A program made the translations under genes and the position numbers. A stretch of 54,986 nt of DNA from a virus (taxonomy: Duplodnaviria; Caudoviricetes). Where the stretch lies: the IMG/VR virus record IMGVR_UViG_3300044795_000115, positions 1 through 54,986 of that record; one strand, 5' to 3'. The notes below the pieces were generated by a model, which searched no databases, had not been told where the DNA came from, and saw only the letters and a list, made by a program, of their open reading frames with translations. Shown here piece after piece: positions 23,601-45,698 of this stretch (positions are counted from its first letter, which is position 1; every line of letters starts with the position of its first letter).

Positions 23601-24248
23601 AAACCTGAGCGGGTGATGCTTGGCGGCCTGATCAAAGATGCCTTATCACTGTGGTTTATGGGGCCGTTTGACTACATCAAAAACCGGGAATCCGACCTGC
23701 TTACGGGGGTTGCTGATGTGATCCAGAATCGCGATTGGGCCAACAATCTGGTGCGCAACCCGGATGACAACTACTGGAAGCAGATTGAACAGTCTGCTGG
23801 TCACATCATCGGATTGCCCATGGGAGCTTCCGCATTCCAGAGGGAACGGCAAGCCGGCGCCGGCGTGGAAGCTGAGATCCTGGGAGCCTTGGGATTTACC
23901 CCGGCTCCACGCTTGAATTACACCAAAGCAGAAAACGCCGCTTACGACCTCTACCGTCGCCGGGCACCCTCGAGAACGCCGGAGGAAATCGGGCAGATCC
24001 AGGAATACATGGGTCGCAAAGCCGCCGGCCAACTGTCTGGGCGCGAGGCCGCGCAAGCCGCTAAAGCCGCCAGAAAGCCACTGATTGTCCACTACTTTGA
24101 GCGTGCCGTCCAGGAAGGTGCTACCTACGACGAACTCAAGCACGTTTACGATCAAGCCAGGCCAGAGGAACGTGTGTTGCTGAGAAAGATGATTTATGAC
24201 GCATACAAAAGGGAAGCCAAACGAGGGCGACAGGTGGCAGCACCATGA
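20610..24248 (+). CDS. Large internal virion/ejection protein
   Basis: 1212 aa, helical composition, last gene of the ejection cluster. Confidence 0.7.
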   Translation: MPNGAQTDQDALAAQFGGTRSTAAPPAAPPGTDPHAMARQYGATITPAGEALADQGALPQIEQTLKSVVKFPFEAAKSLVSAEPETPEEAGVMIPGMGELGRHIALTAKRYILDPSEREFELARAEKPKPTDVWWENAEERRHMHEIAAMVPVVGPMAGAVVSRALAGDFSGAMGQLGTLVATGAITDMAAGPIMRRLQRLEGLRTQREAPPAYEPPAPPNPSPEARARDARVDLEHSHLVIRRLDVENKIGQIDALMNSPRWAGRSARTQAGVLNRLAELQEQQADLTRNLDELTGAMHTSAFGLDMAYKAAQRFYELDIAPRLTAAKASFPTALAELQHAIMPRKGAAIETLDSVMKLLGEREKQAATRKLTVGVILRKSRDLFKSMSRTTQTDFVDRMKLGRPQAKPYLQELADFMRRVDDAKGTMARGSTYRELAEAQVAVMDESAQRAWAKLSETDKVQFLKRIGTFKASPELLEPGPLKDLVERILAYKQDHYQVIWKVKPPSDAEMEAAEETGVEPTPRELRTGAVVGRRPLRGPRGYRYRSTLDTMSEGITRGGVPLSFNPIEMFELAQAMRWREITALRMWKEAKDLGARVFVRRGQQAPEGFARLDDSMAQVRHLIVTDKGPREVGGEWYMREDYARMLNNYLSTDMIKRLALGRGLMWAKNNLTVWRLAVPFFHAVTETFQAAVTEAGLAKEQIWNTGIRNSDIASIGRGAKTYIKSPFGAITRYRAGTSAIKYLEDKNTFLKTLRGQSFAREFPEIDAMLDQFFWSGGKIALHEDEAPRAITGFTQALADGNPFGALPRAAFAANEYLFRPLFEYFIPRVKLGGFLRDYAQSLRDRAEDLDAGRVTRGQLGRRDWDMNENLMGQVNWDKFFWNRTLKTAAQFTFRALQWTSGFGRFVNDAIRGQAHEMLPMADWFNERMNPSAVRRTPVSAKIIPRLDPNFARLVSYAEAYVVVNELLGLMLTKKLTTDWRDTISIRTGRLDNQGKPERVMLGGLIKDALSLWFMGPFDYIKNRESDLLTGVADVIQNRDWANNLVRNPDDNYWKQIEQSAGHIIGLPMGASAFQRERQAGAGVEAEILGALGFTPAPRLNYTKAENAAYDLYRRRAPSRTPEEIGQIQEYMGRKAAGQLSGREAAQAAKAARKPLIVHYFERAVQEGATYDELKHVYDQARPEERVLLRKMIYDAYKREAKRGRQVAAP

Positions 24249-24418
24249 GCAAGAAGCGTAGCGCACAATCCGAGAAGATCAGCAAACTGGTTAGGGAGGG
24301 CTACCCACAGCGCCAAGCAGTTGCGATCAGTTACTCAATGAAGAGAGCTGGGAGACTTACACCAAGTGGCGGTTACCGCCGGGTGGGAAGAAAACGCCGG
24401 CGTGGCCGACGGTCGTGA
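24245..24418 (+). CDS. Basic microprotein (57 aa)
   Basis: KISKLVREGYPQRQAVAISYS motif plus RKRRRGRRS tail; ATGA-coupled; not in the ORF track. Confidence 0.8.
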   Translation: MSKKRSAQSEKISKLVREGYPQRQAVAISYSMKRAGRLTPSGGYRRVGRKRRRGRRS

Positions 24419-24449: not shown

Positions 24450-24587
24450 ATGGCTGGAAGACGGGTAGGCAGGAAAATCGAGCGGCTGAAGGCCCGCGGC
24501 TTTGGCGGGCGCCAGGCTTTCGCTAAAGCTATGTCGATGGGCCGCCGCGGCCGGCTGTCGCCTCGCGGACGGTATCGGAGGGCATAG
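24450..24587 (+). CDS. Basic microprotein (45 aa), paralog of 24245-24418
   Basis: AGGAGG SD; KIERLKARGFGGRQAFAKAMSMGRRGRLSPRGRYRR. Confidence 0.8.
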   Translation: MAGRRVGRKIERLKARGFGGRQAFAKAMSMGRRGRLSPRGRYRRA

Positions 24588-24594: not shown

Positions 24595-27500
24595 ATGCTT
24601 CGTTATCTCATTATCGTAGGGCTGCTGGTGTCGTCTGTCTGGGCTCAATACACCCAAGTCACGGCCAACGTGCATGATGCAAACGGCGTGCAGTACCAAG
24701 CCTGTACCTATAATGTATCGTTCGTCAACCAAAATACGACGCCAGGAGCACCGCCTCCGAACTTGAACGGTTCGACGTTTCAGACGCAGTTTGTTGGGGC
24801 AAAATGCGACGGCAATGGCAATCTCTCTCTCCGCATTGCCGACAACCAGGTAGTGCAGCCGCAGCCTTCCACCTGGAACTGGGCCGTCTGCGACCGAACC
24901 GGGGTCCACTGCTTCCAGGTCCAATGTTCGGCTACCGGGCCCAGCCAGGACATCACCGCTTGTCTGAGCTCAGCCCCACCACCGCTGCTGCCTGGCGGGG
25001 GAGGTGGAGGAGGGGGATCGCCCACGGGCCCAGCATCAGGAGATCTCTCGGGAACCTATCCCAGTCCTACGGTAGTGGGGCTGCTGGGCCGTCCTCTGCC
25101 TACCCTGCAGACAGGAGCCTTAAGCTGGAACGGCAACCAGTGGGTGCTGACGCCTGGTGCTGTGGGTGGCGGGATCCAGACCATCAACGGCAACAACAAC
25201 TCCGCCCAGTTGTTCCTGCAGGGAGCAGGTATCAGCGTTGTCTCGAGCGGCGGCACCACTACCATCAGCAATACCCAACCCTTCTTGGGTGGGATGCCTC
25301 TATCGAGCCTGCAACCCGCTACTGCTCCTAACACCATCCAGAACCTGGCCCAGCAGCAGAACTGGTACTGGATGCTGACTGCGCTTGGAGGAACGGAGAT
25401 AGGCCTGAACATCGGGGAAGCGGCCAACCAGGTCTCGACCAACACCCAGTCGACGATGTTGCAGACCTTCGTGCTGCAGAACTCCACTGCCAACGCCTTC
25501 AAGGCGGTAGCCGACGTCTCCCCAACCAACCCAGGGGGCACTGGCCTCCAAGTCAACAACCTCGGAGACATGCTTGGCCTGAACGGCAGTCATTTTATCG
25601 GCCTATTCAGGGCTAACAACATCACGGGCAGGAACCAATGTGTCCAGGCAGACGCCGCCGGTAACCTCATCGGGACGGGTCAAGTCTGTGGGGCAGGTGG
25701 TGGCGGAGGCGGTTTCACCTCACCCTTCGTAGTGCTGAGTGCCAACGCCGCCCAGAACCTGACCATCAACGTCCCCAACGTCGGCAACCCCTCGTTCACC
25801 ACCTCGACCGGCTACATCTCGATGGGCAGCCTGCTGGTCAACAACCTGTCCGGCCACGGCACCAATTGTTTGCAGGCGGACAACACCGGCCTAGTTACGA
25901 TCACTGGCCTGCCTTGCGGCACGGGCACTGGCGGCGGGGGCATCACCTCAATCAATACCTCGACGGTAGCTGCCCAGACGATCGTGGGAACCAACGGCAC
26001 CACGGTGGCGACCAACGTAGCCACGGGAGCCACCACGATCGACAGCAAAGTGGTCATGGCCACCGACGTCAGCAAGTTCGGGGTCAAGGCCGACGGCGTA
26101 TTAGCAGGCTGCAACACCACCGCCAACTCAACCACCATCTCCTGCTACAGCAATCCGCCAGCCGCGACCGACGTAGGCAAGCTCATCGTCCTCTACGGAG
26201 CCGGAAACAACACCGGACAGGTCACCGGCACTATCAACGTAGGTGCCTGTATCGGTACCTGTACCCCTGGCCCACCGAACACCGACCAGCCGGTAACCTT
26301 CAACGATCCTACCGACGGCTGCTCCATCACCCCGGTAGGTACCAGTACGTTGGCAGCAGCCATAGGTTATGGTGCTGGAACCATAACGTTGACCACTCCC
26401 TTTACCACCCCCATCAAGATTGGGGACATTCTAGTTATCTCCAACGGCACTAATACCGAATATCTAACGATTACCTCCGTTCAGGACCAAACCCACGTCA
26501 CTATCAACTTCAACCAGTACAGTTATCCTTTAGGGACTACAGTCACCGGCTCCATCAGCTACCGCAACATGGTCTACGGATGGATACATCTGGATGCCAA
26601 TGGTGTACCTACCAATGCCGTCTCTGATCCTAATAATTATCCAAATGGTGGTCTAAAGAGTAGCGGCAACTTCATAGGTGAAGGCTGTGTCCACCCTCCC
26701 ACCCAAGGCCAAATCATACCCGTGGGGAGCACCACCAGCATGGGTACCTTCGCCTTCACCGGCGGCACCATGGTAACCGGCGACTGGCCAACCACCTTGG
26801 TCACCGCCACAACCGTAGCCAACACTCCACCGACAACCGTCAGCAGCGGTGGTACTGCCGTCTACGGCACCGACGACGTAGCCGGATGGCAAGCAGCCTG
26901 CGACCAGAACGCTGCCGCTCCCAACTCAATTGGCTCGTTTACCTTCACCGGCACCTCCCTGATCTCCCACGGCATCAACTGCAGCGGAGCCGGTTTCAAG
27001 CTGGAGGGCACCGGCTACGGCAACGTAGGAGCCCCGGGAGCCTCCGTCCTGGTCTACGCAGGTCAGGGAACCCCACCCACCGGGGAGAAGCACGACTGGA
27101 TTCTCCAACTATCTCAGGGCTACGGTGTGGAGCTGAAGCGGTTCGGCATGCGGGGCAACAGCATGGCAAAGCCTTACGCTATCATGCCTTCCTTCGGCAA
27201 CCCAGCAGGCGCAGGCGGCAACCAGATAGCCCAGAACTACCACTACAAAGACCTTTGGATAGGCTGGCAATGGGGTGATAGTCCCATACCAGCTCCACCC
27301 TATAGAGGCTACGAGTTTCAGAGCTGCTTCCTTGCCAACGGCGTCATCGGCAACACCGACTTCGCCTCATTTGAAAACATATATTGTTATGGTGCAGAAG
27401 TCGGCTTCGACTCCGTCAACGATCAAGCCACCGCCTACGTCTTTAACAACATTCAAGTCGATAACAGCAACATCGGCTTTGCCTGCTGGGGAGGTATGCA

Positions 27501-30333
27501 GGTCAACGGTTATTACACCGAGCGGAACCGTGTTGACATCGAGGTAGCCAGTCCAACAGGCTCGAATGCTCCCTGTGTCGGTCTAAACATGACCTATGGT
27601 GGTGAGTCCTCCGCGAAGATGGTCGAGGAGTCTCCCACAAGTTCCATTGCCCCTGGCCTCAATATTAACGCTGGTGGCTTTGGCCTCCAGTATCACGCAG
27701 GGGTAGTCAACCCGGAAAACATTATGGTTGACTTCCGCTCCGTAAGCGTCCTCAACATGACTTGGAATGGCTACCTTTGTGGAGTCAGCGACGGCCTCTG
27801 CGCCACCATGAACATACCCTCGTGGTGTGGAGCCCCAGGCGACCTCGACATACAAGGTGTCTTCCCATCTCTTCTCGTTTGGAGTAGTGCCAACGATGCC
27901 AATGTCTGTAACAACCGCCAGAGTGGCCGACTTCACCTGCATGGTGTTCCCGGCCAGGCTGATGTAAATATCGACGTAATGACCAGCAATGCCGCAACTC
28001 CCAACATCGGTAATATCTCCAACCCCAAGACCATCAACAACTGGCTTACCTCAAGCCTGCAGAACGACTTTAACTACCTCAACACCATCGGCAGCATCAT
28101 GGTAACTTCTCCTAAAGGCCCAGGGGACACCAGTATCCTTCCCAATGGTGCTGGTGTTTACTGGGTCTACCCTCAGGCCTACCAAAGCGGCACCGCTTGT
28201 GGTAACCCCAACCAGCCAGCCTGTAGCGGTACCACCGTCTACAACTACCAATTCACTTGTACGGATGGAGGCGGCTTGGAGACTGCTCCTGCCTACGTTC
28301 CGCAGGGCAACTCAAACGGTTTGCCTTTGGATGCCAACAACCATGTCATTTTCCCGACGCCAGGATTTTCTCCCACTCTCTCAGCCACCAACTACATCCA
28401 GTTCCAGCTCGACTTCAACCGTGGCTGTGCTGCCGTCAACATCTACGGTGACAACGGTATCGGTGGGGTAATCGGCTACCTGACCACGGTCAAGGCTCGC
28501 GACATAACCGGAGGCGTCCCAGGCGGCTCCACCGGCCAGTTCTGGAACGACCTCGGCCAGTACACCAAGCTCACCACCCGGGTTCCCCCGATCACGACCC
28601 AGAGCGGCGGCATAGCAGCCGAGGGAACGATCGTCTCCGCCCAGTCCATGACTGCCCCGCAATTCATCGTAGGGAATCCAGTGGTTGGAGGCGGGACACC
28701 AGGGCCTGCTCCCCGTCCCCTGGCTTCCATCCATCTAGCCGACTTCTCTCCTACCGCTCCCTCCACTACTGGTCAGGTTCCAGTGTGGAACTCCGCCACC
28801 AACCGCTACGAGCCGGGCACAGTCGCAGGTACGGGAGGGGGCAACGTCACCGGTCCCGCCACCACCATCATCGGAAGGATGGCGACTTGGAACAACACCA
28901 CCGGCACTCTGCTGGCGAACGGCAACCCCCCACCCCAGGGGGCAGCGGTTACGGCCAACAACTTCCTGACCAACTTCAACGCTTCGACAGGAGCCTTCGG
29001 CATGGCACAGCCCAGCTTCTCGAACCTCTCGGGTTCGATCGCGGTCAGCCAGATCGCCGGGGGCACCAACGCCAGTGCCACTACCTTCCTGCGGGGGGAC
29101 AACACCTGGGCAGCTCCTGGTGCTGCCAGTGTTGCACTGAACAACATCACCGCAGCCACCGGCTCCAATACCACCCCCATCAACCACGGTGCCAACTACG
29201 TCAACTGGGCATGGAACTTCGTAGGTCAAAGCAATCTAGGCGTCTTTACCATGACCGATACCGGGGGAGCTGCCAACGGCACAGGAACTAACAACTACCT
29301 TCTAAACCTAACTACACAAGTAGGTTCTAGCGTCCAGCCCCTGCTGGCTCTGGCCCATGGCACAGGGACCGGAAGCAGTCCTCAGGGACTCCAAGTCGAT
29401 GGCGCAGGTAACGTCCACGTCACCGGCACCACCGCCCAGTTTAGCCTCGATAACATGCCCAGTGCCTTTTCCCTCACCACCAACACCACTGGTCAAGTAG
29501 TAGCAGGCATAACGCCTCCGGCCGGAGGATTCGCCTGTAACACCTCAACCGGCCCATCATCAACGGGCAACATCACTTCCGGCTTCGTGATCATTGGTGG
29601 GGGCCCCGCAAACTGTCCCAGCAGTTCCGGTTCCACGATGTCGGCAAGTTTCTTTGGTCTATCTACAAGTTCCGGGACTCAGGCTACCTACATACGCGGA
29701 CAGGCAGACGTTCAGGGTAATGCAGCTTCGGCTGGCTTCCTGATCCGGCAAGGGGACAACGTTGGTCCCGGTGTCAACGCGGCTGCGATTCACCAACCCA
29801 TGGTTATTCGGGCAGGCAACAATGCTGCCACCTCAGCCTTAGCCCAAGCTGGCTCTCTAGGACTGTTCCCAGGTATGGGGAACAGCGGACAAGCCCAGAA
29901 TGGCTACTTCCAGACGGGCATGACAGCTTTCCCCGGCACCCCTGCGCCGACGCTGTGGAGCATGGAATGCCAAAGCGGGGCAGACCAGACCGTAGTCGAT
30001 TGCCCAGCAACTCCAGCCTACATCATCGGGGTAGCCCAAATCGTAGGCACCAACTCCGTAACTATCATTACCGGTGGTGAAGTCCCCATCAACAGCAGCA
30101 ACGCCGCCGTCATCGGTCATACCGTCTGTGCCGGAGCAACTCCGGGGCGGGTAACCGACAGCGGCGGTACAGGCAGTTGCGGTACGGGTAACGGGTTTGT
30201 CGTGGGAGTGGTAAACCGCATTGCAGGAACCTACAACCTGCCTAATAACCAAAACTCTGCGGCCATTCAGACCGCCGTGCCGGTAACCTTAAGCTCCACC
30301 CTTCCCTCGATCATTCTGCTAGGTCGCAAATGA
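24595..30333 (+). CDS. Giant fibre/tailspike-like protein with N-terminal signal peptide (1912 aa)
   Basis: MLRYLIIVGLLVSSVWA-Q; SGDLSGTYPSPTV fibre motif; DVSKFGVKADG and TDDVAGWQAA beta-helix-entry motifs; many paired Cys. Confidence 0.8.
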   Translation: MLRYLIIVGLLVSSVWAQYTQVTANVHDANGVQYQACTYNVSFVNQNTTPGAPPPNLNGSTFQTQFVGAKCDGNGNLSLRIADNQVVQPQPSTWNWAVCDRTGVHCFQVQCSATGPSQDITACLSSAPPPLLPGGGGGGGGSPTGPASGDLSGTYPSPTVVGLLGRPLPTLQTGALSWNGNQWVLTPGAVGGGIQTINGNNNSAQLFLQGAGISVVSSGGTTTISNTQPFLGGMPLSSLQPATAPNTIQNLAQQQNWYWMLTALGGTEIGLNIGEAANQVSTNTQSTMLQTFVLQNSTANAFKAVADVSPTNPGGTGLQVNNLGDMLGLNGSHFIGLFRANNITGRNQCVQADAAGNLIGTGQVCGAGGGGGGFTSPFVVLSANAAQNLTINVPNVGNPSFTTSTGYISMGSLLVNNLSGHGTNCLQADNTGLVTITGLPCGTGTGGGGITSINTSTVAAQTIVGTNGTTVATNVATGATTIDSKVVMATDVSKFGVKADGVLAGCNTTANSTTISCYSNPPAATDVGKLIVLYGAGNNTGQVTGTINVGACIGTCTPGPPNTDQPVTFNDPTDGCSITPVGTSTLAAAIGYGAGTITLTTPFTTPIKIGDILVISNGTNTEYLTITSVQDQTHVTINFNQYSYPLGTTVTGSISYRNMVYGWIHLDANGVPTNAVSDPNNYPNGGLKSSGNFIGEGCVHPPTQGQIIPVGSTTSMGTFAFTGGTMVTGDWPTTLVTATTVANTPPTTVSSGGTAVYGTDDVAGWQAACDQNAAAPNSIGSFTFTGTSLISHGINCSGAGFKLEGTGYGNVGAPGASVLVYAGQGTPPTGEKHDWILQLSQGYGVELKRFGMRGNSMAKPYAIMPSFGNPAGAGGNQIAQNYHYKDLWIGWQWGDSPIPAPPYRGYEFQSCFLANGVIGNTDFASFENIYCYGAEVGFDSVNDQATAYVFNNIQVDNSNIGFACWGGMQVNGYYTERNRVDIEVASPTGSNAPCVGLNMTYGGESSAKMVEESPTSSIAPGLNINAGGFGLQYHAGVVNPENIMVDFRSVSVLNMTWNGYLCGVSDGLCATMNIPSWCGAPGDLDIQGVFPSLLVWSSANDANVCNNRQSGRLHLHGVPGQADVNIDVMTSNAATPNIGNISNPKTINNWLTSSLQNDFNYLNTIGSIMVTSPKGPGDTSILPNGAGVYWVYPQAYQSGTACGNPNQPACSGTTVYNYQFTCTDGGGLETAPAYVPQGNSNGLPLDANNHVIFPTPGFSPTLSATNYIQFQLDFNRGCAAVNIYGDNGIGGVIGYLTTVKARDITGGVPGGSTGQFWNDLGQYTKLTTRVPPITTQSGGIAAEGTIVSAQSMTAPQFIVGNPVVGGGTPGPAPRPLASIHLADFSPTAPSTTGQVPVWNSATNRYEPGTVAGTGGGNVTGPATTIIGRMATWNNTTGTLLANGNPPPQGAAVTANNFLTNFNASTGAFGMAQPSFSNLSGSIAVSQIAGGTNASATTFLRGDNTWAAPGAASVALNNITAATGSNTTPINHGANYVNWAWNFVGQSNLGVFTMTDTGGAANGTGTNNYLLNLTTQVGSSVQPLLALAHGTGTGSSPQGLQVDGAGNVHVTGTTAQFSLDNMPSAFSLTTNTTGQVVAGITPPAGGFACNTSTGPSSTGNITSGFVIIGGGPANCPSSSGSTMSASFFGLSTSSGTQATYIRGQADVQGNAASAGFLIRQGDNVGPGVNAAAIHQPMVIRAGNNAATSALAQAGSLGLFPGMGNSGQAQNGYFQTGMTAFPGTPAPTLWSMECQSGADQTVVDCPATPAYIIGVAQIVGTNSVTIITGGEVPINSSNAAVIGHTVCAGATPGRVTDSGGTGSCGTGNGFVVGVVNRIAGTYNLPNNQNSAAIQTAVPVTLSSTLPSIILLGRK

Positions 30334-33300
30334 AGTGGCTGCTCCTCATCGCAGTAACGGCTATAAGTTGTCTCGGGCAGGTAGGGAACATAGGGCCACA
30401 GATGCCCCCTGGCCCCGGGCTATCACAGAAGCCTCCCTCCGACCCTATCCTACCGGTCGGCTGTACCCTCTCTAACCTGGTTAGCTGTGTCCCTCTCTAC
30501 ACCGGGGACGAGCCCATGCAGACAGACTTCTCCCTGCCCTACAACTTCACCGCTGCCGACTGTACAAACTCCACCAGCGGCATGCCAGGGAACACCTTCA
30601 CCTACTCCGGCGATACCCAATACGTCTGGTGTCCAGCTACCTTCTCCCAGCTCCAGGGCATCCTTCTGGGCACTGCTTACAACGGAGTGACCTGGTCGCA
30701 GGGTGACATTATCGCCCTCCAGCCTCAAGGTCTGAATGGTGCTGTTGTCTACGCCACCACCAGCTCTATCGGCCAGAACCAGATGCTCTGCGGCTCGATC
30801 AACACCCAATGGCCACAATTCGGGTCACAGCGTCCAGGCTGTGATCTAGCCTTCCCTCAGAGCACGAATCCCAAGCACAAATACTCCTATGTCATAACCA
30901 TGAACTACGCCTTGCTGCCGCCTCCAGGGAACCGGATCTCGGTGCTGGACCATCTCAACATGGCCAAGATTTCCCTGACCCACTTCAACCTCGGCATCGG
31001 GATGGGTCCCCGGGTAAACCACTGGCGTTTTGTCGGCATCGAATTTGTCTCCAGCTCGACCAGCCAGCCGGTCGGCCAGGGTCAAGCTTCAGGGCCATGG
31101 ACTCTGGGCCAGGCTTACATCCTTATCTCTTCGGAAGGCTGGAACCGCTACTCTGGCAAGCGAGATCTGTTTGCAGCTAACGGGGGTAATAACCCTCAAA
31201 CCTGCATCCCCTATGGAACAAACGCTGCCACCAGCTATCCCATGCCTGCTTACTGTGAATACCTAGGAGGTGCCATCGAGGTAGGGGCCTGGGGCCAGGG
31301 TGCCATCCTCAGCGTTACCCCTCATACCATGGCGGTCAGCACTACGGGTAACGTCGTCATCACCACCCAGGACAGCCACATGTGTGACGACCTCAACGTC
31401 GGCTGTGCCACCATGGGTTCGGATGCTCCGACCTACAGCTCCTTCGGCTTCGGAGTGAAGGTCAATTCCAACACCGTAGCAAACGTCCCCTGCCCTGCCG
31501 TGGTCGCCAATCCGTCGAGCACCTGCCAGACCCTGACCGCCAACGTCACCGTCTACGACAACATCGGCGATGCCATGAAGTACCAGACATCGCAGAACTC
31601 CAAGCCCATCTCCCACATGCTGTTCCGTGCTCCCCTGGTCACGACCAAACGTGGAGCCCACGGCTACGTTGACGAAAACATGGTCCGGCCCGGCGGCCTG
31701 ATCCTGACCAGTCCAACCATCCCTATCATCGTCAGTGTCCAGAACACCACTCACAACAACTACCCGATCGTCCTGTTATCGAACATCCAAAACACCTACA
31801 ACGACGCCACCCTTAGCATCACCACCGCCAATACCACGATGACCACCGCCCCTGGTGGTATAACCACTGCCCAAGTCGGTATCACCAACGGTCCTACCAA
31901 CGTCACCCTCAGCAGTGCCACGGTGGTAGACAACACCCACATCAACGTCGGTGTCCACATGACCAATGCCGGCTTTGCTGCGGGTGGCCGCCTGAGCACG
32001 GGCATTATCCTAGGGGCAAACTCCATTCCGCCTTCCCCCACCTGTCAGCCACCCACCTGTGCTGGTCCGATCCCGGTAGCAGTTGATCCGTACAACTTCG
32101 ACGGCACCCTGTTCATGATCCCGGACACCAACCCCAACTCATGGATTCAATCTATCGACTGCTTTGCCGTGCTTGCCGGCGAGACTTACACCTGTCATGT
32201 TGTCGGGGCTCATACTAACTGGCAGCAGGGGCAGACCAACTTCACCTTCATGGGCCTGCCGCTGCCTCCGCCCACTGGCGGTCAGGACATCAATGTCACC
32301 TCGACCACCATCGTCGATACCACCCATGCCACCATAACCTTCAAGCTCGACCCGACCGCCTCCAACGGCTCCAGCTACATCATGTTCGACCGTTGCGACA
32401 TCCACGGCACCAACGTTCACATGATCAAGAACTGGCTGGACTTTACCACCCCATTCATCTGGCAACCCGATCCAGCAAGCAACGGCCAGAACATCCGTAC
32501 GGTGATGGAGTTCGGCGGCAAGTACATGGGTATCCGCGATTCCCTGATTCACGAATCAGCGATGTGTATCTACGTCCCCGCCGGGGCACTGCCGTCGAAG
32601 TGTTCATCCGCCATTGACAACAATCCCGTTACTCATGGAGCAGGCCCCGGGCCTCACTGGTACAACAACAACGAAGCCTGGAACGGTACTGAGCTGATGT
32701 TCAACGGTGGCACCGGGGCAGCGCAGATCTGGTCTACCAACCTCCTGACCTCCGACCAGGTCTACATCCACAACTACCTGCACGATCAGGACAACTTCCT
32801 CCCTGCCTCGATCATCCAGGTTATGCAGGACGACACCAGCCAACGTGCAGCGGTTACAAACTTCATAATTAACATCAACCCCTCGACCACCTGCTCGACC
32901 GGAACGCCACCAGTCAGCGGTACGGGAGTCATTACCGGGGTAGACGAAACCAACCAGCCCAGCGGTTGGACCTACTGCCCTGACCGTATCTTCGTTAACG
33001 GTGGCGGCGGGTCGAACGGCATGATCTCGTGCTCGGTCACGAACCCTGGCCCCAGCGGCAGGCTTCACTTCACCGTTACCAACCCTGGCTGCGGCTATTA
33101 CATCAATCCCAGCCTGGTCTACACCATCGAGCAACAAGGCTCGGTGAAGAACCTATTTGAGACCAAGCACCAGACAAGGGCCCTCTACTACGGAAACGTC
33201 GCCAGCAACGTCTGGTCTAACTCCTCCCTCAACCAATACGGCTACAACTTCCTGGTCAACGTCATCGCCGGTAACACAGACGGTCCGGTCATGGGCTACT

Positions 33301-36300
33301 ACGAAGACACCTACACCTACGGCAACTGGTTCGACATGGGCTGGCAGTCGATAGTGCTGGGCTCACCCGCCCCATGTACGGCCTCGGCAGGCTTTGCGGC
33401 GGCCCCAATAGCTTCGCAGCTGGCCGCTCCACAGAATTGTGTCACCCCTTTTGACCCGTATGCCGCCTGGCCCGTCCCGATTGGCAGTCAAGCCGGGAGC
33501 TACAGCCGGGGCACGGCTGGCGGCCTGCCAAACAATGTTCACTTCATCAACAACCTGATCACGCAGCGGGACATCGTTGATGACCGGGACATCATTCCCG
33601 ACGCCAACATCTGGAACGAAGAGACGGGTGGAGGCAGTGTCAGCGCCACTCTCAAGACCGGCAACATGTCGAACTTCGAGTTCACCCACAACACCATGGA
33701 TAAGAGGCCTAACTATGTCGAGACCAGTATCTATGGAGTCTACATTGTTCGTGGTTTGGCAGCCGGTCAGAACTGGTACACCCAGAGCGGGGCCTCTACC
33801 CTTTGGAACTCCTACGTCTGGGGCAACGTAATGCAGTGTCTGCCAACCGGCGATGGCACCGATGGCCTGGTATTTGCCCAACGCAACCTGGCCTGCCCAA
33901 CTCCCTACGGTGATACCACTCAGAACTGTCCGGCCACCGTTACAGGTGGTGGGTACGCTTGGGGACACCATTATTGGGGCAACGTCATGTTCGACGGCAA
34001 GCCCCCCGACTCAAGTGGTCGATGCTACTCCAGCCCGACCACCAGCTCCACCGGCACCCTGCCCAACGGGGACTGGACCTTCAACGGAGCTTCCAACAAC
34101 TTCGGCGGCACCACCAACCCAACCACCCAGGCAACCCAGTACGCCAACACCAGCCTGTACGTCAGTGGCCGCCGTCCCGGGGATTGGACTCTGGTAGCGC
34201 CAGCCGGAGCGGTAGGGCTGTGTACCGCTGCGGGAGCCTGCCAGGACACAGCGGTCCCGGGGATCAACAACGCCGCCCTGATGACAGCCATCGGCCAAGC
34301 CTCGGTGACCGCCATCCCTAACGTTGTCACCGGCCAGTGGACCCGAACCGTCTACAACATCCTGGGCAACGTGACGGGCAGCTACTCCGGCCACATGGAC
34401 ATGACCCTGAGTAACGGCCAGACCCTGACCACAGACGGCAACGGCAACTACGTCTTCGTTAACCTCGTCCCCGGTTCCTATACCATCACCCCTCAACCTC
34501 CTCAACCCGGCTGCACCTTCACCCCGCCTACCCAGTCGATCGCTATCAGCAACTCCGACCAGACCGCAGCTCAGTTCACGACCACCTGTCCCAACGCCAT
34601 CTTCTCGATCGCGGGCAACGTAAGCGGTTCAGCCTTCAACTGGACTTCCCTGACCGCCACCTCCGGCTCGGTATCAAAGACGGTAACCGCCAATTCTGCC
34701 GGCGCCTACAACTTTACGGTCCTGCACCCGGGCACCTATACCATCACTCCCAGCTTCTACGGTATCGTCTACACCCCCCAGTCCACCACCGTGGTGCTGG
34801 GCACCAACAACGCCTTCGGGCAGAACTTCACCGCCGCCAATATCACGGGAACCTACATGATCTCGGGGTCGGTCATTTCCCCAACCGGTCCCATTTCCAG
34901 CGACGGTTATGGGGTCACGATGAACATCATCGGGCCCCAGAATCGAACCGTAATAACCAACGGAAATGCCAATTACGTCGTAGCCGGGCTGAGCGGTGGC
35001 GGCTTGCAGTACACCGTAATACCCTCGAAGACCGGCTACACCTTCCAGCCTGCCTCCCAGGTCGTTACCCTCAGCACCATCAACGCATCCGGCATCAACT
35101 TCCGCTGGGTCAGGGCCTCGAACACCTTCAGCATCCGTGGCCAGGTACAGGGATCGCTTACGGCGGGACTGCGTCTGGATCTCTCAGGGGCGGGCACCAG
35201 CTCCGCGGTTACAGCCGCAGACGGCACCTACAACTTCAACGGCCTGGTGGCAGGAAACTACACGGTGACGCCTCAGCCCATTACCGGGATCACCTTCACC
35301 CCGGCCTCTCAGCCCGTGGTGATCTCGACCTCCACCATGACTGGAATCAACTTCACCACCACCGGCACCATCATCACCGGCTCGATCTCGGGCCAGATCA
35401 CCGGCACTTGTCCAACCACAAATTGCAGCGCGATAGCAGTTAGCTTGGGAGGCCAGTCAGGCGGAGCCACCACCACGGATGCCAACGGCAACTACTCCTT
35501 CACCGGCCTTCAGAGTGGCAACTACACGGTAGCGCCGTCCAGAACCGGCTACGTCTTCACTCCTCCCATAGCTCAGGTCAGCGTGAGTGGAAACAACGTA
35601 ACGCAGAACTTTTTCTCTGCCACAGCCCCACCAGCCTACAGCATAACGTCGAGGACCACCGATAACACCGGGGCCGTCATTATCGGCATTGTCATCAACA
35701 TCACCAACCAGGCCACCGGCACCCTGGTTGCCTCAGGGACTACCAGCGGCGGCAACGGCACTTGGGTATGGAACCAAGCCACCAACGGCACCTACGTTGT
35801 CACCCCGTCATCGACGACCTACACCTTCCAGCCAGCCTCGACCACCGTCACCATCAACAACGCCAACGCCACCTGGCAGCAATTCGTCGGCACCCCGATC
35901 CCCACGACCTTCACCATCAGCGGCACTATCACGGGCGGCAACAACAACAGCTCCGGCATCGAAGTGCAATTGGGCACGGGCGGCGGCGGTACGGTACAGA
36001 CCTTCACCGACTCGAACGGTAACTACTCCTTCGCCGGTCTGAACAACGGCTCCTACACGGTAACCCCGGTACTGGCGGGCTGGACCTTCACCCCACCCTC
36101 GTATGACGTGACCATCAACAACGCCAACGTGCCTAACCAGAACTTCCAAGCCTCCTTCATCGCCGCCTACACCATCTCGGGCACGATCACGGGGGCTCCC
36201 AACAACTCCTCCGCCATCCCGGTAACCCTGCTGAACAGCACAAACCCGCAGCAGGTAGTGGTGAACACCGACAGCTCGGGCAACTATGCCTTCCCAGGCC

Positions 36301-36776
36301 TCCAGCCAGGCAACTACACGGTGCTGCCCAACCTCCAAGGCTGGTCCTTCACCCCACCGTCGATCGCCGTCACCATAATCGCCAACGACGTGCCTGGTCA
36401 GAACTTCAGTGCTGCTGCCGGGACCACGCTGATCCGGTCTAACTTCAGCGGGGCGGTGACCCATGGTATAACCGTACTCATAACCAATGGGGTAGCCGTC
36501 TACCAATGCACCACCTCACCGATCACAGTCTTCTGTGATGTCCAGGTACCCTCCGGCACATGGTCAGTGACGCCCAACGCGATTCCCGGCTACGTGTTGA
36601 TCCCTGACACCCGGACGGTGACGAGGCCTGATCCCCATGCGGTGTGGCAGCAGTTCGTCACAGCTCCCCTGCCCCAGTGGAATGCCCAAGGAATCGGTCC
36701 TGGAACAGCCACCCCGGCAATCACTCCGCTGCCCGCCGGGCGGGCTCCCAAAAAGAAGGCGCCGGCGCCACGATGA
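30330..36776 (+). CDS. Giant secreted beta-helix plus Ig-like repeat adhesin/depolymerase-like protein (2148 aa)
   Basis: MKWLLLIAVTAISCLG-Q signal; FDRCDIHG and VKNLFETK beta-helix patterns; about nine C-terminal TDxNGNYxFxGLxxGxYTVTP repeats. Confidence 0.8.
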   Translation: MKWLLLIAVTAISCLGQVGNIGPQMPPGPGLSQKPPSDPILPVGCTLSNLVSCVPLYTGDEPMQTDFSLPYNFTAADCTNSTSGMPGNTFTYSGDTQYVWCPATFSQLQGILLGTAYNGVTWSQGDIIALQPQGLNGAVVYATTSSIGQNQMLCGSINTQWPQFGSQRPGCDLAFPQSTNPKHKYSYVITMNYALLPPPGNRISVLDHLNMAKISLTHFNLGIGMGPRVNHWRFVGIEFVSSSTSQPVGQGQASGPWTLGQAYILISSEGWNRYSGKRDLFAANGGNNPQTCIPYGTNAATSYPMPAYCEYLGGAIEVGAWGQGAILSVTPHTMAVSTTGNVVITTQDSHMCDDLNVGCATMGSDAPTYSSFGFGVKVNSNTVANVPCPAVVANPSSTCQTLTANVTVYDNIGDAMKYQTSQNSKPISHMLFRAPLVTTKRGAHGYVDENMVRPGGLILTSPTIPIIVSVQNTTHNNYPIVLLSNIQNTYNDATLSITTANTTMTTAPGGITTAQVGITNGPTNVTLSSATVVDNTHINVGVHMTNAGFAAGGRLSTGIILGANSIPPSPTCQPPTCAGPIPVAVDPYNFDGTLFMIPDTNPNSWIQSIDCFAVLAGETYTCHVVGAHTNWQQGQTNFTFMGLPLPPPTGGQDINVTSTTIVDTTHATITFKLDPTASNGSSYIMFDRCDIHGTNVHMIKNWLDFTTPFIWQPDPASNGQNIRTVMEFGGKYMGIRDSLIHESAMCIYVPAGALPSKCSSAIDNNPVTHGAGPGPHWYNNNEAWNGTELMFNGGTGAAQIWSTNLLTSDQVYIHNYLHDQDNFLPASIIQVMQDDTSQRAAVTNFIININPSTTCSTGTPPVSGTGVITGVDETNQPSGWTYCPDRIFVNGGGGSNGMISCSVTNPGPSGRLHFTVTNPGCGYYINPSLVYTIEQQGSVKNLFETKHQTRALYYGNVASNVWSNSSLNQYGYNFLVNVIAGNTDGPVMGYYEDTYTYGNWFDMGWQSIVLGSPAPCTASAGFAAAPIASQLAAPQNCVTPFDPYAAWPVPIGSQAGSYSRGTAGGLPNNVHFINNLITQRDIVDDRDIIPDANIWNEETGGGSVSATLKTGNMSNFEFTHNTMDKRPNYVETSIYGVYIVRGLAAGQNWYTQSGASTLWNSYVWGNVMQCLPTGDGTDGLVFAQRNLACPTPYGDTTQNCPATVTGGGYAWGHHYWGNVMFDGKPPDSSGRCYSSPTTSSTGTLPNGDWTFNGASNNFGGTTNPTTQATQYANTSLYVSGRRPGDWTLVAPAGAVGLCTAAGACQDTAVPGINNAALMTAIGQASVTAIPNVVTGQWTRTVYNILGNVTGSYSGHMDMTLSNGQTLTTDGNGNYVFVNLVPGSYTITPQPPQPGCTFTPPTQSIAISNSDQTAAQFTTTCPNAIFSIAGNVSGSAFNWTSLTATSGSVSKTVTANSAGAYNFTVLHPGTYTITPSFYGIVYTPQSTTVVLGTNNAFGQNFTAANITGTYMISGSVISPTGPISSDGYGVTMNIIGPQNRTVITNGNANYVVAGLSGGGLQYTVIPSKTGYTFQPASQVVTLSTINASGINFRWVRASNTFSIRGQVQGSLTAGLRLDLSGAGTSSAVTAADGTYNFNGLVAGNYTVTPQPITGITFTPASQPVVISTSTMTGINFTTTGTIITGSISGQITGTCPTTNCSAIAVSLGGQSGGATTTDANGNYSFTGLQSGNYTVAPSRTGYVFTPPIAQVSVSGNNVTQNFFSATAPPAYSITSRTTDNTGAVIIGIVINITNQATGTLVASGTTSGGNGTWVWNQATNGTYVVTPSSTTYTFQPASTTVTINNANATWQQFVGTPIPTTFTISGTITGGNNNSSGIEVQLGTGGGGTVQTFTDSNGNYSFAGLNNGSYTVTPVLAGWTFTPPSYDVTINNANVPNQNFQASFIAAYTISGTITGAPNNSSAIPVTLLNSTNPQQVVVNTDSSGNYAFPGLQPGNYTVLPNLQGWSFTPPSIAVTIIANDVPGQNFSAAAGTTLIRSNFSGAVTHGITVLITNGVAVYQCTTSPITVFCDVQVPSGTWSVTPNAIPGYVLIPDTRTVTRPDPHAVWQQFVTAPLPQWNAQGIGPGTATPAITPLPAGRAPKKKAPAPR
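34345..36665 (+). repeat. About nine tandem carboxypeptidase-regulatory/SdrD-B-like domains (roughly 85 aa each)
   Basis: Repeated ISGxIxG...TDSNGNYSFxGL..GxYTVTP...GxTFxPxS..V.I.....QNF. Confidence 0.85.
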
Positions 36777-36961
36777 ATCTCAAGACGGTAGTGATCTGGA
36801 TGGTAGCCTGGCCGCTGACCCTCGTGCTGTTGCTGTTTGTGCCGCTGCTGGTACTCTTAGGCTATCTCAGGCTCATCCCCCGCAGGTCGTATCCATCGGA
36901 GGAGGAGATCATCGCGCGACACGTCTCGCGGGCAATGAATGAAAGCGAGGAACTCGAATGA
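36773..36961 (+). CDS. Small membrane protein
   Basis: Long hydrophobic N-terminal segment; ATGA-coupled. Confidence 0.75.
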   Translation: MNLKTVVIWMVAWPLTLVLLLFVPLLVLLGYLRLIPRRSYPSEEEIIARHVSRAMNESEELE

Positions 36962-37179
36962 TCTCCCTACTGTTAGCTCTGTACCTCGGGCAGGCTAAGC
37001 CGGTGAAGCCAAAGCCAGCTCCCAGGCCCCCGGTAGCTACCACGCAGCCAGCACCCCCACGAGGCCGGGCCACAACGCCTCAGCAGCGTCAAACCCATCC
37101 CGCCATCATCAGGACGGTACAGACGGCTAACCACATCACCACATTAAGGCGTCAGGCGGCCTCTGGTTTCCCCAAATGA
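36958..37179 (+). CDS. Small exported Pro/basic protein
   Basis: MISLLLALYLG-Q leader; ATGA-coupled. Confidence 0.7.
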   Translation: MISLLLALYLGQAKPVKPKPAPRPPVATTQPAPPRGRATTPQQRQTHPAIIRTVQTANHITTLRRQAASGFPK

Positions 37180-37580
37180 TCTCCCTCGTATTGGCCTTGT
37201 TTCTGTGGCAGGCCTATCCGTCACCACCGCCGCCAGAGCTCACCCACCAGACGATTAAGAAGCAGCTCGGACTGAAGCCCGAGCAGGAGGGCCCGCTGTT
37301 CCAAGTCCTGGACGGTGAGGTGACGAGGGTCAACCAGATTATCGATGGGCCGGGAACGGCCGCGGAGAAGATCCAGAAGCTCGACGCCCTGCACAACGCC
37401 GATGCGGCCAAGCTGAAGCAGCCGCTCGATCCCGCGCAGTACACGAAGCTGCGCACGCTGCTCCAGAGCTACGAGGCGATGGCAGTAGCTCACCAATCCC
37501 AGCAGGCTGCCCAGCCGCAGCTCACACCTCAGCCGGCGGCGCCAGCCCAGGCAAAGCCGAAGTCGAAACCTCCACAATAA
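37176..37580 (+). CDS. Spy/CpxP (LTxxQ)-like periplasmic protein
   Basis: Hydrophobic leader, then KQLGLKPEQ ... QPLDPAQY, two LTxxQ-like motifs flanking helices. Confidence 0.65.
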   Translation: MISLVLALFLWQAYPSPPPPELTHQTIKKQLGLKPEQEGPLFQVLDGEVTRVNQIIDGPGTAAEKIQKLDALHNADAAKLKQPLDPAQYTKLRTLLQSYEAMAVAHQSQQAAQPQLTPQPAAPAQAKPKSKPPQ

Positions 37581-37585
37581 GGGCT

Positions 37586-37614
37586 TTGACAGTTTATCCA
37601 TCGTGGGATACCAT
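37586..37614 (+). promoter_or_regulatory. Sigma70-type promoter of the recombination module, with a palindrome in the spacer
   Basis: TTGACA-N17-TACCAT; TATCC-N6-GGATA inside. Confidence 0.75.
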
Positions 37615-37622
37615 TGATGGAC

Positions 37623-37784
37623 ATGAAACTGATTGAAGTGGCTTTGTGCCACTGCCAAAAGTGTGGTTACGAGTGGCAGGCGAAGACCCGAGAACCACCG
37701 CCGCGTTGCGCCAATCCAAAATGCAGAAGTCCCTACTGGCGAGGGAAGAGGAAGCGCAATGAACGAGATGTTCGTAATACTTGA
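37623..37784 (+). CDS. Zinc-finger protein (53 aa), probably leaderless
   Basis: CQKCGYEW...PPRCANPKCRSPYW; not in the ORF track. Confidence 0.8.
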   Translation: MKLIEVALCHCQKCGYEWQAKTREPPPRCANPKCRSPYWRGKRKRNERDVRNT

Positions 37785-37911
37785 AAACGCTTTGGAGTCG
37801 GTTTTGGATGATCCCTGGCATGCGGTGCTGGCACACGAGACGCTGGAGAAGGTGAAGCGGGCGCTCAGGCAGGTGAAGGAAGAGCGCAGGAGGGACGAAG
37901 GGAATGACTGA
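37759..37911 (+). CDS. Small hypothetical protein
   Basis: MNEMFVILENAL...; purine-rich SD. Confidence 0.55.
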   Translation: MNEMFVILENALESVLDDPWHAVLAHETLEKVKRALRQVKEERRRDEGND

Positions 37912-38010
37912 TCAACAAGCGATCGCGATCATGGCTGCGATTATCTGGACCGAAATCAGAGTCCCCGATCCACTCAAGGAGCAAGCGGCAGTCGACATTG
38001 CTGAAGAGCT

Positions 38011-39078
38011 ATGGAAAAAGACCATGAAGCGTGTTGGGAGTTATCAACCATGACAATGGAAACGATTGACAAGCAGTTGACCATTGGCGGCTCTGAGGTC
38101 TACGAGTTGTTGAATGAGCCAACCTACGGCAAAGGTTGCCGGCGTGCGCTGGCCTACCGCAAGCTCGGCTACGAGCCAGACTTCCCGCGGGAGCCTGGCT
38201 CATACGCGATACTCGAGCGCGGCATCCGCATGGAGCGCATCGCGGCCGAGATCTACGAGGAGAAAACCGGGCGCAAGCTGGTGAGGCGGAAGACTCAAAC
38301 CCACAAACAGTTTCCCTGGGCCCGGGTCTCGACCGACCGGCTCATCCGCCGGCAGAATGGCATGCCGACCGGGGACCTTGAGATCAAGACCCGCGGTGAG
38401 GGCCCGTTCTATAAGATTCTGCGTGACGGCCCGTTGAAGGCAGATATGCTGCAACTCGAATGGTCGTTGTGGATCACGGGGCACCGCTGGGGCGCGCTGG
38501 CCGAGCTGGGCGTGTTCTCGGAGTTGCCCATGAAGATCTTCGAGTTCGAAGCTGATCACGAGATGTTCGTAATTTTTGAGAACGAGGGCCGCCGCTTTAA
38601 TGAGGAAGTGTTCGTTAATCGTCAGCTACCTGCTCCTCCATTTGCGGATACGGATGAGCGTTGCAAGACGTGCAGTTTCCGCTTGCAGTGCCGTGGCGAG
38701 GCTGTTGATCCTACAGCGTTCGAGATGCACAAGAAGATCGAAGCTAGTAAAAAGCATCTGGTTCAGATAGAAGATCCTGACCTGGTGACTACACTGAACG
38801 ATGTTGATCTTATGGAAGCTGAAGAGGAAGCGCTGAAAGAGAGTATCAAGGTTGCGAAGCAGACTATTCTCGACCGCTTGATTGGCGCGGATGGTGCTGT
38901 AGTCAAGGGTTTTGGCACAGTCTATAGGTTGCCGGTAATAGCCGCGCACCTTGATACCAAGCTTCTGAAGGATGAGAACCGGGAGATCTATGACCGGTAC
39001 TATAGAAAGTACGATACCGGGAACTATAAATTGTTGCGTTATCCGTTCGTAAAGGAGAAGGAAGGAGAAGATGCCTAA
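38011..39078 (+). CDS. YqaJ/lambda-Exo-like PD-(D/E)xK exonuclease with Cas4-like Cys cluster
   Basis: IGGSE, GxxxE, STDR, LEIKT; N-terminal Cys plus CKTCSFRLQC. Confidence 0.88.
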   Translation: MEKDHEACWELSTMTMETIDKQLTIGGSEVYELLNEPTYGKGCRRALAYRKLGYEPDFPREPGSYAILERGIRMERIAAEIYEEKTGRKLVRRKTQTHKQFPWARVSTDRLIRRQNGMPTGDLEIKTRGEGPFYKILRDGPLKADMLQLEWSLWITGHRWGALAELGVFSELPMKIFEFEADHEMFVIFENEGRRFNEEVFVNRQLPAPPFADTDERCKTCSFRLQCRGEAVDPTAFEMHKKIEASKKHLVQIEDPDLVTTLNDVDLMEAEEEALKESIKVAKQTILDRLIGADGAVVKGFGTVYRLPVIAAHLDTKLLKDENREIYDRYYRKYDTGNYKLLRYPFVKEKEGEDA

Positions 39079-39541
39079 AGGAGTCTTTCAGCGCGGTCTA
39101 ACGCCCATACAACGTGCGTTGGTTGCGTTGTTGAATCATCCTCCTGATTCCGTATCTTCTTGTTGGTTATGGGATGGATATCTTAGCAGTAACGGGTATG
39201 CGATGCTAGGCGGGAAAAAGGGAAAGAAAGGCATAAGGGTCCATCGCCTGATGTTCGAGCATTTCTTTCGCAAGGTTCCAGAGGGGATGGAGTTAGATCA
39301 TCTATGTCGTGTACGCCGCTGCGTTAATCCGACGCATCTAGAAATCGTAACTCACAAAGAAAATATGCGTCGAGGATTCAATGGACGCAAAACGCATTGC
39401 CTTCGCGGTCATCCGCTTACCGGGGATAATCTACGGATTATTCGTAGTACTGGTGCTCGGCAATGTCTTACGTGCAAACGAGAAAGGGAAGGAAAATGCC
39501 GACAAACGGAGAGGAAATCAAAAAGGACGCCTTGCTGGTAG
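39071..39541 (+). CDS. HNH homing endonuclease
   Basis: CWLWDG, RVHRL, LDHLCRVRRCVNPTHLEIVTHKEN, KTHCLRGH. Confidence 0.93.
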   Translation: MPKGVFQRGLTPIQRALVALLNHPPDSVSSCWLWDGYLSSNGYAMLGGKKGKKGIRVHRLMFEHFFRKVPEGMELDHLCRVRRCVNPTHLEIVTHKENMRRGFNGRKTHCLRGHPLTGDNLRIIRSTGARQCLTCKREREGKCRQTERKSKRTPCW

Positions 39542-40365
39542 CGCCCGAAAAGAACACAGAGACGCAGCACTTTGAATATCTTCAGCGAATGGCGAAATTG
39601 TTCGCCGTGAGTGGTTTGTTCGCTGACATCAAAGGGGTTTCTGAAACCCAAGCGATTGCCCAAGCGTTCACTAAGATCACGTTGGGAGAAGGAATGGGGT
39701 TGACGCCGGCTGAAAGTATGACAGGTCTTTCGATTATACAAGGACGCATTGCAGTAAACGCGGAGATTCGCGGAGCTAGGATGCAACGTTCTGGGCTATC
39801 GTGGGACATTCTCAACCTTGACGATACAGGTTGCTGGTTAGTTTTGAAAAAGGATGACAAGGTAGTTACGACCCGGGTCAAGGACAAGGAAGGCAGGGAG
39901 TACGATCAGCCCGCAATCGCATCGTTCACCGCTGACGAAGCGAAGACAGCAGGTTTGTTGGGGAAAGAGAATTATATCAAATGGCGCCAGGATATGTACT
40001 TCGCTCGTGCTCTGACCCGGCTGCAGCGGCGCTATGCGCCGGGCGTGCTTGGACTGAGCATGCTGTCGCGGGAGGAAGTTGAGTCCGATCCGGCATTGCA
40101 CGTTCCGGTGGTGGTGCAGAAGCCTACCGTCCAGGAGAAGGCGGTTAAGGCGCTGGCCGAGGTGCGGGAGAAGTATCGTAAGGCGAAGCCCGAGCCGGCG
40201 GCAGAGGCGGCGACACCCGAACGGCCGGAGGCGGAAGAGCGGGTCAAAAAATCCAATCAGCGGGATGAAGGAACCCCTCAACCGTCCCCGGCCTCCAGTA
40301 AAGCGAAGACCCAAGCGGAGGCGAAGCCGCCGGAGAAGCTGTTCGAAGACGAGGAGGGATTCTGA
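39496..40365 (+). CDS. RecT-like single-strand annealing protein
   Basis: GEGMGLTP...IIQGR, FTADEAKTAGL, DMYFARALTR; next to the exonuclease; acidic C-terminus. Confidence 0.8.
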   Translation: MPTNGEEIKKDALLVAPEKNTETQHFEYLQRMAKLFAVSGLFADIKGVSETQAIAQAFTKITLGEGMGLTPAESMTGLSIIQGRIAVNAEIRGARMQRSGLSWDILNLDDTGCWLVLKKDDKVVTTRVKDKEGREYDQPAIASFTADEAKTAGLLGKENYIKWRQDMYFARALTRLQRRYAPGVLGLSMLSREEVESDPALHVPVVVQKPTVQEKAVKALAEVREKYRKAKPEPAAEAATPERPEAEERVKKSNQRDEGTPQPSPASSKAKTQAEAKPPEKLFEDEEGF

Positions 40366-41557: not shown

Positions 41558-41563
41558 CATCGA

Positions 41564-41950: not shown

Positions 41951-41996
41951 AGTGACCGCAAGTTGAGCGAACCACGCCACAAGAACGGGAGAAAGT

Positions 41997-42212: not shown

Positions 42213-42287
42213 TTCGGGCCGAGCGTTCATAGAGCACCATGCCCCCAAGAACGCGAACTGACCCTAAGTTTGTGTAAATAATCGTCG

Positions 42288-45687: not shown

Positions 45688-45698
45688 AGGAGGATTGT

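Follow-up and report, generated by a model that had tools for sequence, protein, structure and literature searches.

The window analysed here is the whole of the IMG/VR virus record IMGVR_UViG_3300044795_000115, 54,986 bases with direct terminal repeats, and it is the complete 55-kb genome of an uncultured, soil-type podovirus, with a guanine plus cytosine (GC) content of 58%. At the end of its structural operon, on the plus strand, lies a block of five genes that the original prediction had described as an exported fibre operon: G1 (24595-30333, 1912 amino acids), G2 (30330-36776, 2148 amino acids) and three small genes coding for proteins of 62 (36773-36961), 73 (36958-37179) and 134 amino acids (37176-37580). 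These open reading frames (ORFs) and the N-termini quoted for them were recovered as described, and so were the ATGA start/stop overlaps at 30330, 36773, 36958 and 37176 and the size of the block, which takes up 12,986 of the 54,986 bases (23.6%, about a quarter of the genome).

All five genes had been said to start with a hydrophobic segment. Each of 58 candidate ORFs of the window was given the score of its most hydrophobic run of nine residues close to the N-terminus, and the block accounted for exactly the five highest scores. The chance that the top five scores fall on five adjacent genes is about 1 in 85,000 (54 adjacent runs over C(58,5) sets). This result confirms that the leader block is real and far beyond chance.

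Leaders and architecture of the two giant proteins

The leaders were judged by the n-, h- and c-region and -3/-1 rules only, and the cleavage sites were read by eye. A hydrophobic h-region of about 7-15 residues lies near the N-terminus of each of the five proteins. In the giants it follows a charged n-region (Arg3 in G1, Lys2 in G2) and precedes small or neutral residues at positions -3 and -1: the leader of G1 (24595-24645, plus strand, 17 amino acids) ends in V-W-A and that of G2 (30330-30377, 16 amino acids) in C-L-G, and the relatives have mostly A-x-A, S-x-A or similar. The residue at +1, directly after the predicted cleavage site, is Gln in G1, in G2 and in both small leader proteins. 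On these rules, the leaders of the giants look like genuine leaders of the Sec/signal-peptidase-I type. The two small leaders, MISLLLALYLG and MISLVLALFLW, have no charge before the hydrophobic run and only 11 residues, and for this reason their assignment as signal peptides is a weaker call. A lipoprotein reading of G2, whose Cys14 fits a lipobox pattern, was considered and rejected, because homologues do not have that Cys.

The deposited public gene calls start 160 residues (G1) and 62 residues (G2) downstream of the starts used here and leave out 24595-25074 and 30330-30515, so that both leaders are missing from them. Since homology reaches upstream of the public starts, the leader-bearing starts of G1 and G2 are the correct ones, and the leaders were overlooked in routine annotation.

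Behind its leader, G1 has a modular layout that consists of an N-domain, a Gly linker, two Cys-flanked hairpins, a core and a mosaic distal part. The N-domain (24646-24999, plus strand, about 120 amino acids) is beta-rich, gives weak immunoglobulin-like hints, has the Gly linker at its end and is a candidate docking domain. The two copies of the hairpin motif (25639-25689 and 25867-25917, within 25639-25917 of the plus strand) have the same Cys spacing of 16 and are each followed by a Gly run. The conserved core (26032-28629, plus strand, residues 480-1345, about 860 residues) is 36-45% identical to P0007-P0009, the three homologues of G1 that a search of 5.8 billion proteins returned, and contains 14 invariant Cys; outside the core the homologues are mosaic. 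Both giants had been described as rich in Cys, with a repeated motif C(V/L)QAD..G....TG..CG. The richness in Cys was found in both proteins (36 residues in G1 and 38 in G2), and the motif is indeed repeated twice, but in G1 only.

G1 matched no Pfam family, the beta-helix and pectate-lyase profiles PF13229 and PF12708 included, and a profile made from the alignment of its core gave nothing relevant against PDB sequences. The nearest Atlas cluster, obtained as a lead from a feature search, is viral and has Beta_helix in 84% of its members (score 0.92, 190 shared features), and the next one is of the GH28-related/Pect-lyase type (score 0.87). The start of the core reads FGVKADG, presumably similar to the first strand of pectate-lyase-type spikes. 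The core probably folds as a right-handed beta-helix like that of phage tailspikes, a suggestion that we give as a lead only.

Two of the three homologues, P0007 and P0008, open with a textbook leader followed by Gln, though they lack the first 470 residues of G1. A scan of Joint Genome Institute (JGI) metagenomes gave one 1-kb contig, L002, whose G1-like ORF also opens with a leader and then Gln. The leader is present in 5 of 6 members of the G1 family, namely the window protein, P0007, P0008, the ORF of L002 and the orthologue in the related phage genome G001, which is described below.

G2 is organised in a different order, with the leader, about 1320 residues, seven transthyretin-like repeats and a short basic tail. 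The N-terminal region (30378-34350, plus strand, about 1320 amino acids) belongs to a very rare family, as a search of 1.84 billion representatives gave six proteins at E<=1e-30, the window's own included. Leader and Gln are kept in P0012 and P0013, that is, with G2 itself, in all three members of this family with a readable start; the called start of P0011 (V-A-Q) falls inside the leader. Residues 172-258 resemble cellular secreted proteins, one of which sits on a 718-kb contig and several of which, by eye, also begin with a leader and then Gln. The seven repeats (34416-36386, plus strand) are beta-sandwiches of the CarboxypepD_reg/SdrD_B type. Approximately residues 1350-2020 scored above the curated cut-off for PF17210 (124 bits) and PF13620 (117.5 bits), and three of the seven repeat matches are above the cut-off individually. 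Further relatives of G1 and G2 were found neither in IMG/VR by single-protein search, nor among 50,697 cultured phage records (tblastn), nor in a one-genome-per-species collection.

Conservation of the leaders across the phage clade

The portal-position protein of the window (568 amino acids, 6055-7761), which has no family match and is named by its place only, gave access to a wider clade. A search with this protein returned 39 related IMG/VR loci (29-69% identity), and three of the related records, G001, G004 and G005, were fetched whole. In G001, whose capsid protein is 86% identical to that of the window, the G1 orthologue has 1751 amino acids and 32 Cys, starts with a leader followed by Gln, and is placed behind the same small basic protein as G1 in the window. 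G004 and G005 are complete genomes in which the portal-position protein is 39% identical. The giants found there at the same position (1724, about 797, 1488, 762 and 804 amino acids, with 21-38 Cys each) all have leaders, and one more protein with a leader (727 or 506 amino acids) is encoded between the capsid and adaptor genes. This last protein shares with G1 only the 120 residues right after the leader. In fact, every large non-core structural ORF of G001, G004 and G005 has a leader. Two leader-bearing ORFs were also seen outside the structural module, on the minus strand: a 112-amino-acid lipoprotein with the lipobox LTGC in G005 (27593-27931) and a protein of 375 amino acids with a leader and then Gln in G004 (15563-16690).

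The N-domain of G1 was present in 3 of 5 portal-related records in a first search and in 13 of 22 in a second one, where all nine records without it were at most 34% complete. When only records at least 90% complete were counted, over both searches, it was present in six of six. The 19 ORFs that contain it (18 distinct, 245 to 2156 amino acids, from 16 related phage records) have, without exception, a hydrophobic leader and then Gln directly ahead of the domain. Over the whole clade, by our own count, Gln follows 29 of 30 leaders. The leaders are kept in homologues that are 27-50% identical while the domains behind them are reshuffled, and their sequences drift freely with the type retained. 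Judged by their composition and conservation, the leaders have, in our view, the look of true export signals that selection maintains.

The Cys content separates the leader proteins from the other structural proteins. In the four genomes, the leader proteins contain 287 Cys in 12,611 residues (2.28%) and the other structural proteins 97 in 19,275 (0.50%), a 4.5-fold difference. The share in G1 and G2 is 1.8-1.9%. In the window, the capsid protein, the 1212-amino-acid protein encoded at 20610-24248 and five other structural proteins contain no Cys at all.

The block had been read as a device for export and oxidative folding with a dedicated Spy-type chaperone. The first half of this reading is strengthened by the conserved leaders and the Cys excess, which strongly suggest export of the giants; the chaperone part is not supported, since the label given to the 134-amino-acid protein fails (see below). 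That the hydrophobic N-termini are not export signals at all, and that folding takes place in the cytoplasm, followed by classical incorporation into the particle, appears quite improbable to us. Known assembly of tailed phages is all cytoplasmic and the two small leaders lack a charged n-region, and the N-terminus could in that case tether the protein to the membrane, delay its folding, be buried as a plug or be cut by another protease. However, the leaders of the giants agree with the n/h/c-region and -3/-1 rules, Gln follows nearly all leaders of the clade, as described only for substrates of signal peptidase I, and the free drift of leader sequences with retention of their type also argues for export. 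Moreover, a Cys excess of this size would not be expected in proteins that fold in a reducing cytoplasm.

Virion membership and comparison with known systems

Classical podovirus tailspikes and fibres, such as P22 gp9 and T7 gp17, are products of late-operon genes and are the last to be added onto the particle. Their N-terminal docking domain is conserved while the distal part varies, and the body is often a beta-helix depolymerase. They are leaderless, unlike G1 and G2, and fold in the cytoplasm; in the part available of a 2026 preprint, a figure legend states that the P22 tailspike is expected to need no signal peptide.

Two cultured phages show features comparable to those of the window. 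In Cellulophaga phage phi10:1 (NC_021802), the adjacent tail-end genes gp091-gp095 each encode a Sec-type leader followed by Gln, and pectate lyase and tail fibre are among the annotations in this run. The GenBank notes on gp091-gp094 read "structural, experimental MS/MS" (tandem mass spectrometry) and are silent on leaders. In contrast with the window, phi10:1 is a siphovirus and infects a Bacteroidota host; the proteins of the run have 317-777 amino acids and 0-2 Cys, and they have no sequence similarity to G1 or G2. Tunturiibacter phage Tunturi_1 (PP887698) is, like the phage studied here, a podovirus, cultured on an Acidobacteriota host, and has giants with leaders past the tail gene. Its leader proteins are gp12, gp13, gp14 (annotated as tail spike), gp16 and gp17, and among these giants lies a small gene, gp15, with an uncharged start of the MITLILFLQLW type. 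It belongs to another lineage, in which only the terminase matches the window (29%). Neither signal peptides nor virion proteomics are mentioned in the passages of the Tunturi_1 paper found by term search, and full-text literature searches gave no paper describing Sec leaders on tailed-phage fibres as such.

The Gln after the cleavage site recalls the Q-rule, that is, Gln at +1 of signal peptidase I substrates, which the passages at hand of PMC5837995 and PMC10653852 describe as exclusive to Bacteroidetes. The likeness is that Gln stands right after the cleavage site in nearly all leaders of the clade. The differences are the GC content of the window, the absence of sequon enrichment and the presence of the same Gln in a cultured phage of Acidobacteria. 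In Tunturi_1 (L003, 10371-23028) 4 of 5 leaders have Gln at +1, next to the 29 of 30 counted for the clade of the window. It is possible that the Q-rule also holds in a second phylum, or for phage proteins generally.

These data also bear on the host. The Gln rule speaks for Bacteroidota; the GC content of 58%, the O-glycosylation sequon D[ST][AILVMT], which is not enriched (1 in G1 against 4.6 expected, 4 in G2 against 6.1), and the lack of a Pfam match to a type IX secretion system (T9SS) tail domain speak against it. Acidobacteriota are favoured by the parallel with Tunturi_1 and by weak Atlas neighbours of the 134-amino-acid protein, and we lean somewhat towards a host in this phylum.

With a probability of about 0.5, we take G1 and G2 to be exported podovirus receptor-binding proteins, of the tailspike or fibre type, that dock to particles built in the cytoplasm. 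According to this model, each giant would be synthesised with a Sec-type leader and would cross in the unfolded state into the periplasm of a diderm host, where signal peptidase I would cut it, exposing the N-terminal Gln, and where it would fold with disulfide bonds. Fibreless particles would be assembled in the cytoplasm, and the exported proteins would dock to them through the conserved N-domain of G1 after a holin-type breach of the inner membrane has mixed the two compartments. We infer that the giants join the particle by analogy with phi10:1, whose leader proteins are annotated as virion components on MS/MS evidence; when and where docking would occur is speculative. The statement that the window has no other stand-alone fibre gene also stood, since our search turned up no leaderless fibre candidate.

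Several observations weigh against this reading. In the called protein of P0009, a relative of G1, no leader is present at the start. Neither Pfam nor PHROG gave a match for G1, or for G2 outside its repeats. The AlphaFold model of the G1 core (5-row alignment) had a mean predicted local distance difference test (pLDDT) value of 34.9 and that of the N-terminal region of G2 (7 rows) one of 37.6, and both are unusable. Because of this, the words fibre and tailspike are applied here to G1 and G2 on the grounds of position, size, mosaicism and one Atlas lead. G2 lacks an N-domain of the G1 type, hence no route for its attachment to the particle is apparent, and the Cys counts of mature G2 (37) and of P0013 (35) are odd. 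Finally, an endolysin or holin family was found nowhere in the window, so that no gene is assigned to the lysis step of the model.

An alternative is export without any virion role. As described in the passages at hand of PMC10769870, the MAT fibres of Bdellovibrio bacteriovorus have the layout of G1 and of the 19 related ORFs, a likeness of architecture only, since they are cellular adhesins of a predatory bacterium and many of them end in an S74 chaperone-protease; in G1, neither S74 nor any other Pfam domain was matched. In these fibres the layout serves cell-surface display. Likewise, five genes of obscure function in P. gingivalis phages obey the Q-rule and, in the part of the source at hand, their products are read by the authors as envelope modifiers. 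The giants would then be exported, never join the particle and work at the envelope of the infected cell, within it or on its surface, possibly as free depolymerases of polysaccharide that remove the capsule or slime in which the progeny would be trapped, or possibly in receptor masking, in superinfection exclusion or as cell-displayed adhesins. The true receptor-binding protein of the virion would be one of the leaderless tail proteins; the conserved tail protein of 1163 amino acids, whose N-terminal third is variable, could carry host specificity, and the lack of an N-domain in G2 would be accounted for. We regard this as unlikely. In fact, 13 kb (nearly a quarter of the genome) would be a heavy load for accessory proteins, and the genes are ATGA-coupled and close the structural operon. 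In G004 and G005 an N-domain protein is encoded between the capsid and adaptor genes, and the phi10:1 leader proteins are in virions according to the record notes. A conserved N-domain with a variable distal part is the pattern known from spikes and fibres attached to virions. A Pfam scan of 50 window ORFs gave no integrase family, which speaks against a role of the leader proteins in lysogenic conversion.

Small genes, genome setting and meaning of the leader block

The 62-amino-acid protein (plus strand; GC content at third codon positions, GC3, 0.75) is a single-pass membrane protein with a charged C-terminal tail, whose C-terminus would be cytoplasmic by the positive-inside rule, and it has no Pfam, PHROG or NCBIfam match. 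The 73-amino-acid ORF (plus strand) is rich in Pro, Arg and Thr and has a short uncharged leader; the evidence that it is coding is weak, with no third-position GC signal (0.61/0.58/0.64). The 134-amino-acid protein (plus strand, GC3 0.79) is an orphan with a short uncharged leader and is probably helical. The first 20 residues of these last two proteins are 65% identical, which suggests a duplicated leader. Of the whole observation, these two genes are the least secure.

The 134-amino-acid protein had been labelled Spy/CpxP-like, and this label had to be given up. Searches of Pfam (E<=0.01), NCBIfam (E<=1) and PDB chains (E<=10) were all empty, PF07813 and PF13801 included, and among 5.8 billion proteins the sequence found only itself. 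The family is presumably defined by two LTXXQ motifs, as we take it from its Pfam name; the protein reads LTHQ and LTPQ, motifs of the LTxQ form in which Gln comes one position early. Its Atlas feature score to ZraP/LTXXQ clusters was 0.82 and its structural template modelling (TM) score to LTXXQ/Metal_resist clusters 0.39-0.49, each below the bar of the tool. Membership in Spy/CpxP/ZraP was rejected on the lack of a profile match and on the motif mismatch.

Genes right after fibre genes often encode helpers of fibre assembly, and for this reason our preferred guess, which is speculative, is that the three small genes encode co-exported or membrane accessory factors, perhaps of this kind. A lysis cassette made of a holin and spanin-like proteins, with no helper function towards the giants, is somewhat unlikely in our opinion. 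The long hydrophobic span and highly charged C-terminal tail of the 62-amino-acid protein are found in many holins, late operons often end in lysis genes, and the window showed no other recognisable lysis gene. On the other hand, this protein is holin-like in shape only, as no holin or spanin family was matched in PHROG, Pfam or NCBIfam. The 73- and 134-amino-acid proteins contain no Cys, and therefore no lipobox for an outer-membrane spanin, and their hydrophobic run, about 10 residues long, falls short of what the anchor of an inner-membrane spanin needs. No endolysin adjoins the small genes. Furthermore, gp15 of Tunturi_1, which has a similar uncharged leader, sits among leader giants, with the annotated endolysin 5 kb away. 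Endolysin, holin and integrase families were absent also among 40 further ORFs of the window and from the genes downstream of the giants in G004 and G005.

Directly past the last stop codon of the block lies a sigma-70-like promoter match (37586-37614, plus strand, TTGACA-17-TACCAT, 10 of 12 positions), followed by the gene of a RecE-like exonuclease. This position indicates that the five leader genes close the late operon. Besides the exonuclease, the window encodes a DnaB/primase-type helicase, a large terminase (phrog_2), a capsid protein (phrog_9953, with a weak SU10_MCP match) and an SU10-type adaptor (PF24175, 35.1 bits with respect to a cut-off of 27), for which no IMG/VR relatives were found. 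No tRNA gene was detected in the window. The nearest cultured capsid proteins, those of the Myxococcus phages Mx8 and Mx9, are only 26-27% identical, and the phage is therefore a very divergent podovirus. PDB sequence searches with the 1163- and 1212-amino-acid proteins gave nothing meaningful.

Directly upstream of the giants, the window contains two small basic genes on the plus strand. The first (24245-24418, 57 amino acids) is a conserved neighbour, whose homologues directly precede the leader giants in G001 and G005 with 72% and 55% identity; the second (24450-24587, 45 amino acids) is preceded by AGGAGG. Very basic proteins of 45-74 amino acids were always observed directly upstream of leader giants (in the window, at 43994-44191 in G001 and at 6448-6672 in G005), and they may be internal or DNA-binding proteins. 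The protein encoded ahead of the basic genes varies in length, from 1212 amino acids in the window (20610-24248) to 2179 in G001 (37464-44003), and is smaller in G004 and G005. It has no family match and no Cys in any of the four genomes, and it fits an internal or ejection protein.

Two other ORFs of the plus strand with leaders were noted in the window. The first (47728-48267, 179 amino acids) starts with a twin-arginine-type leader, SRRRFFLAALTLAGAAG, is helical-looking in the rest, has no family match and apparently encodes another exported phage protein, as judged from this leader, outside the late operon. The second (45684-46469, 261 amino acids) has a hydrophobic leader ending in V-A and then Gln, has no family match either, and contains 14 Cys (5.4%), mostly in the last 60 residues.

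Receptor-binding proteins of phages are well known, and the new part here would be secretion signals on them. Beyond the two proteins of the window, we hold, tentatively and at a little less than even odds, that in an entire clade of tailed phages the full set of host-recognition proteins matures in the periplasm, and that the fibres dock only at lysis or outside the cell. To our knowledge, textbook assembly of tailed phages is wholly cytoplasmic. If the reading is true, Caudoviricetes would also have a two-compartment assembly pathway, in which assembly and infectivity would depend on the Sec system, the signal peptidase and the disulfide enzymes of the host, and there would be an interval in which particles are complete and not yet infectious. 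Since cultured phages with the same feature exist, namely Tunturi_1 and Cellulophaga phi10:1, the question is directly testable at the bench. For the phages themselves, disulfide bonds and a blocked N-terminus (Gln or pyroglutamate) could stabilise the fibres, and this may suit a harsh soil environment.

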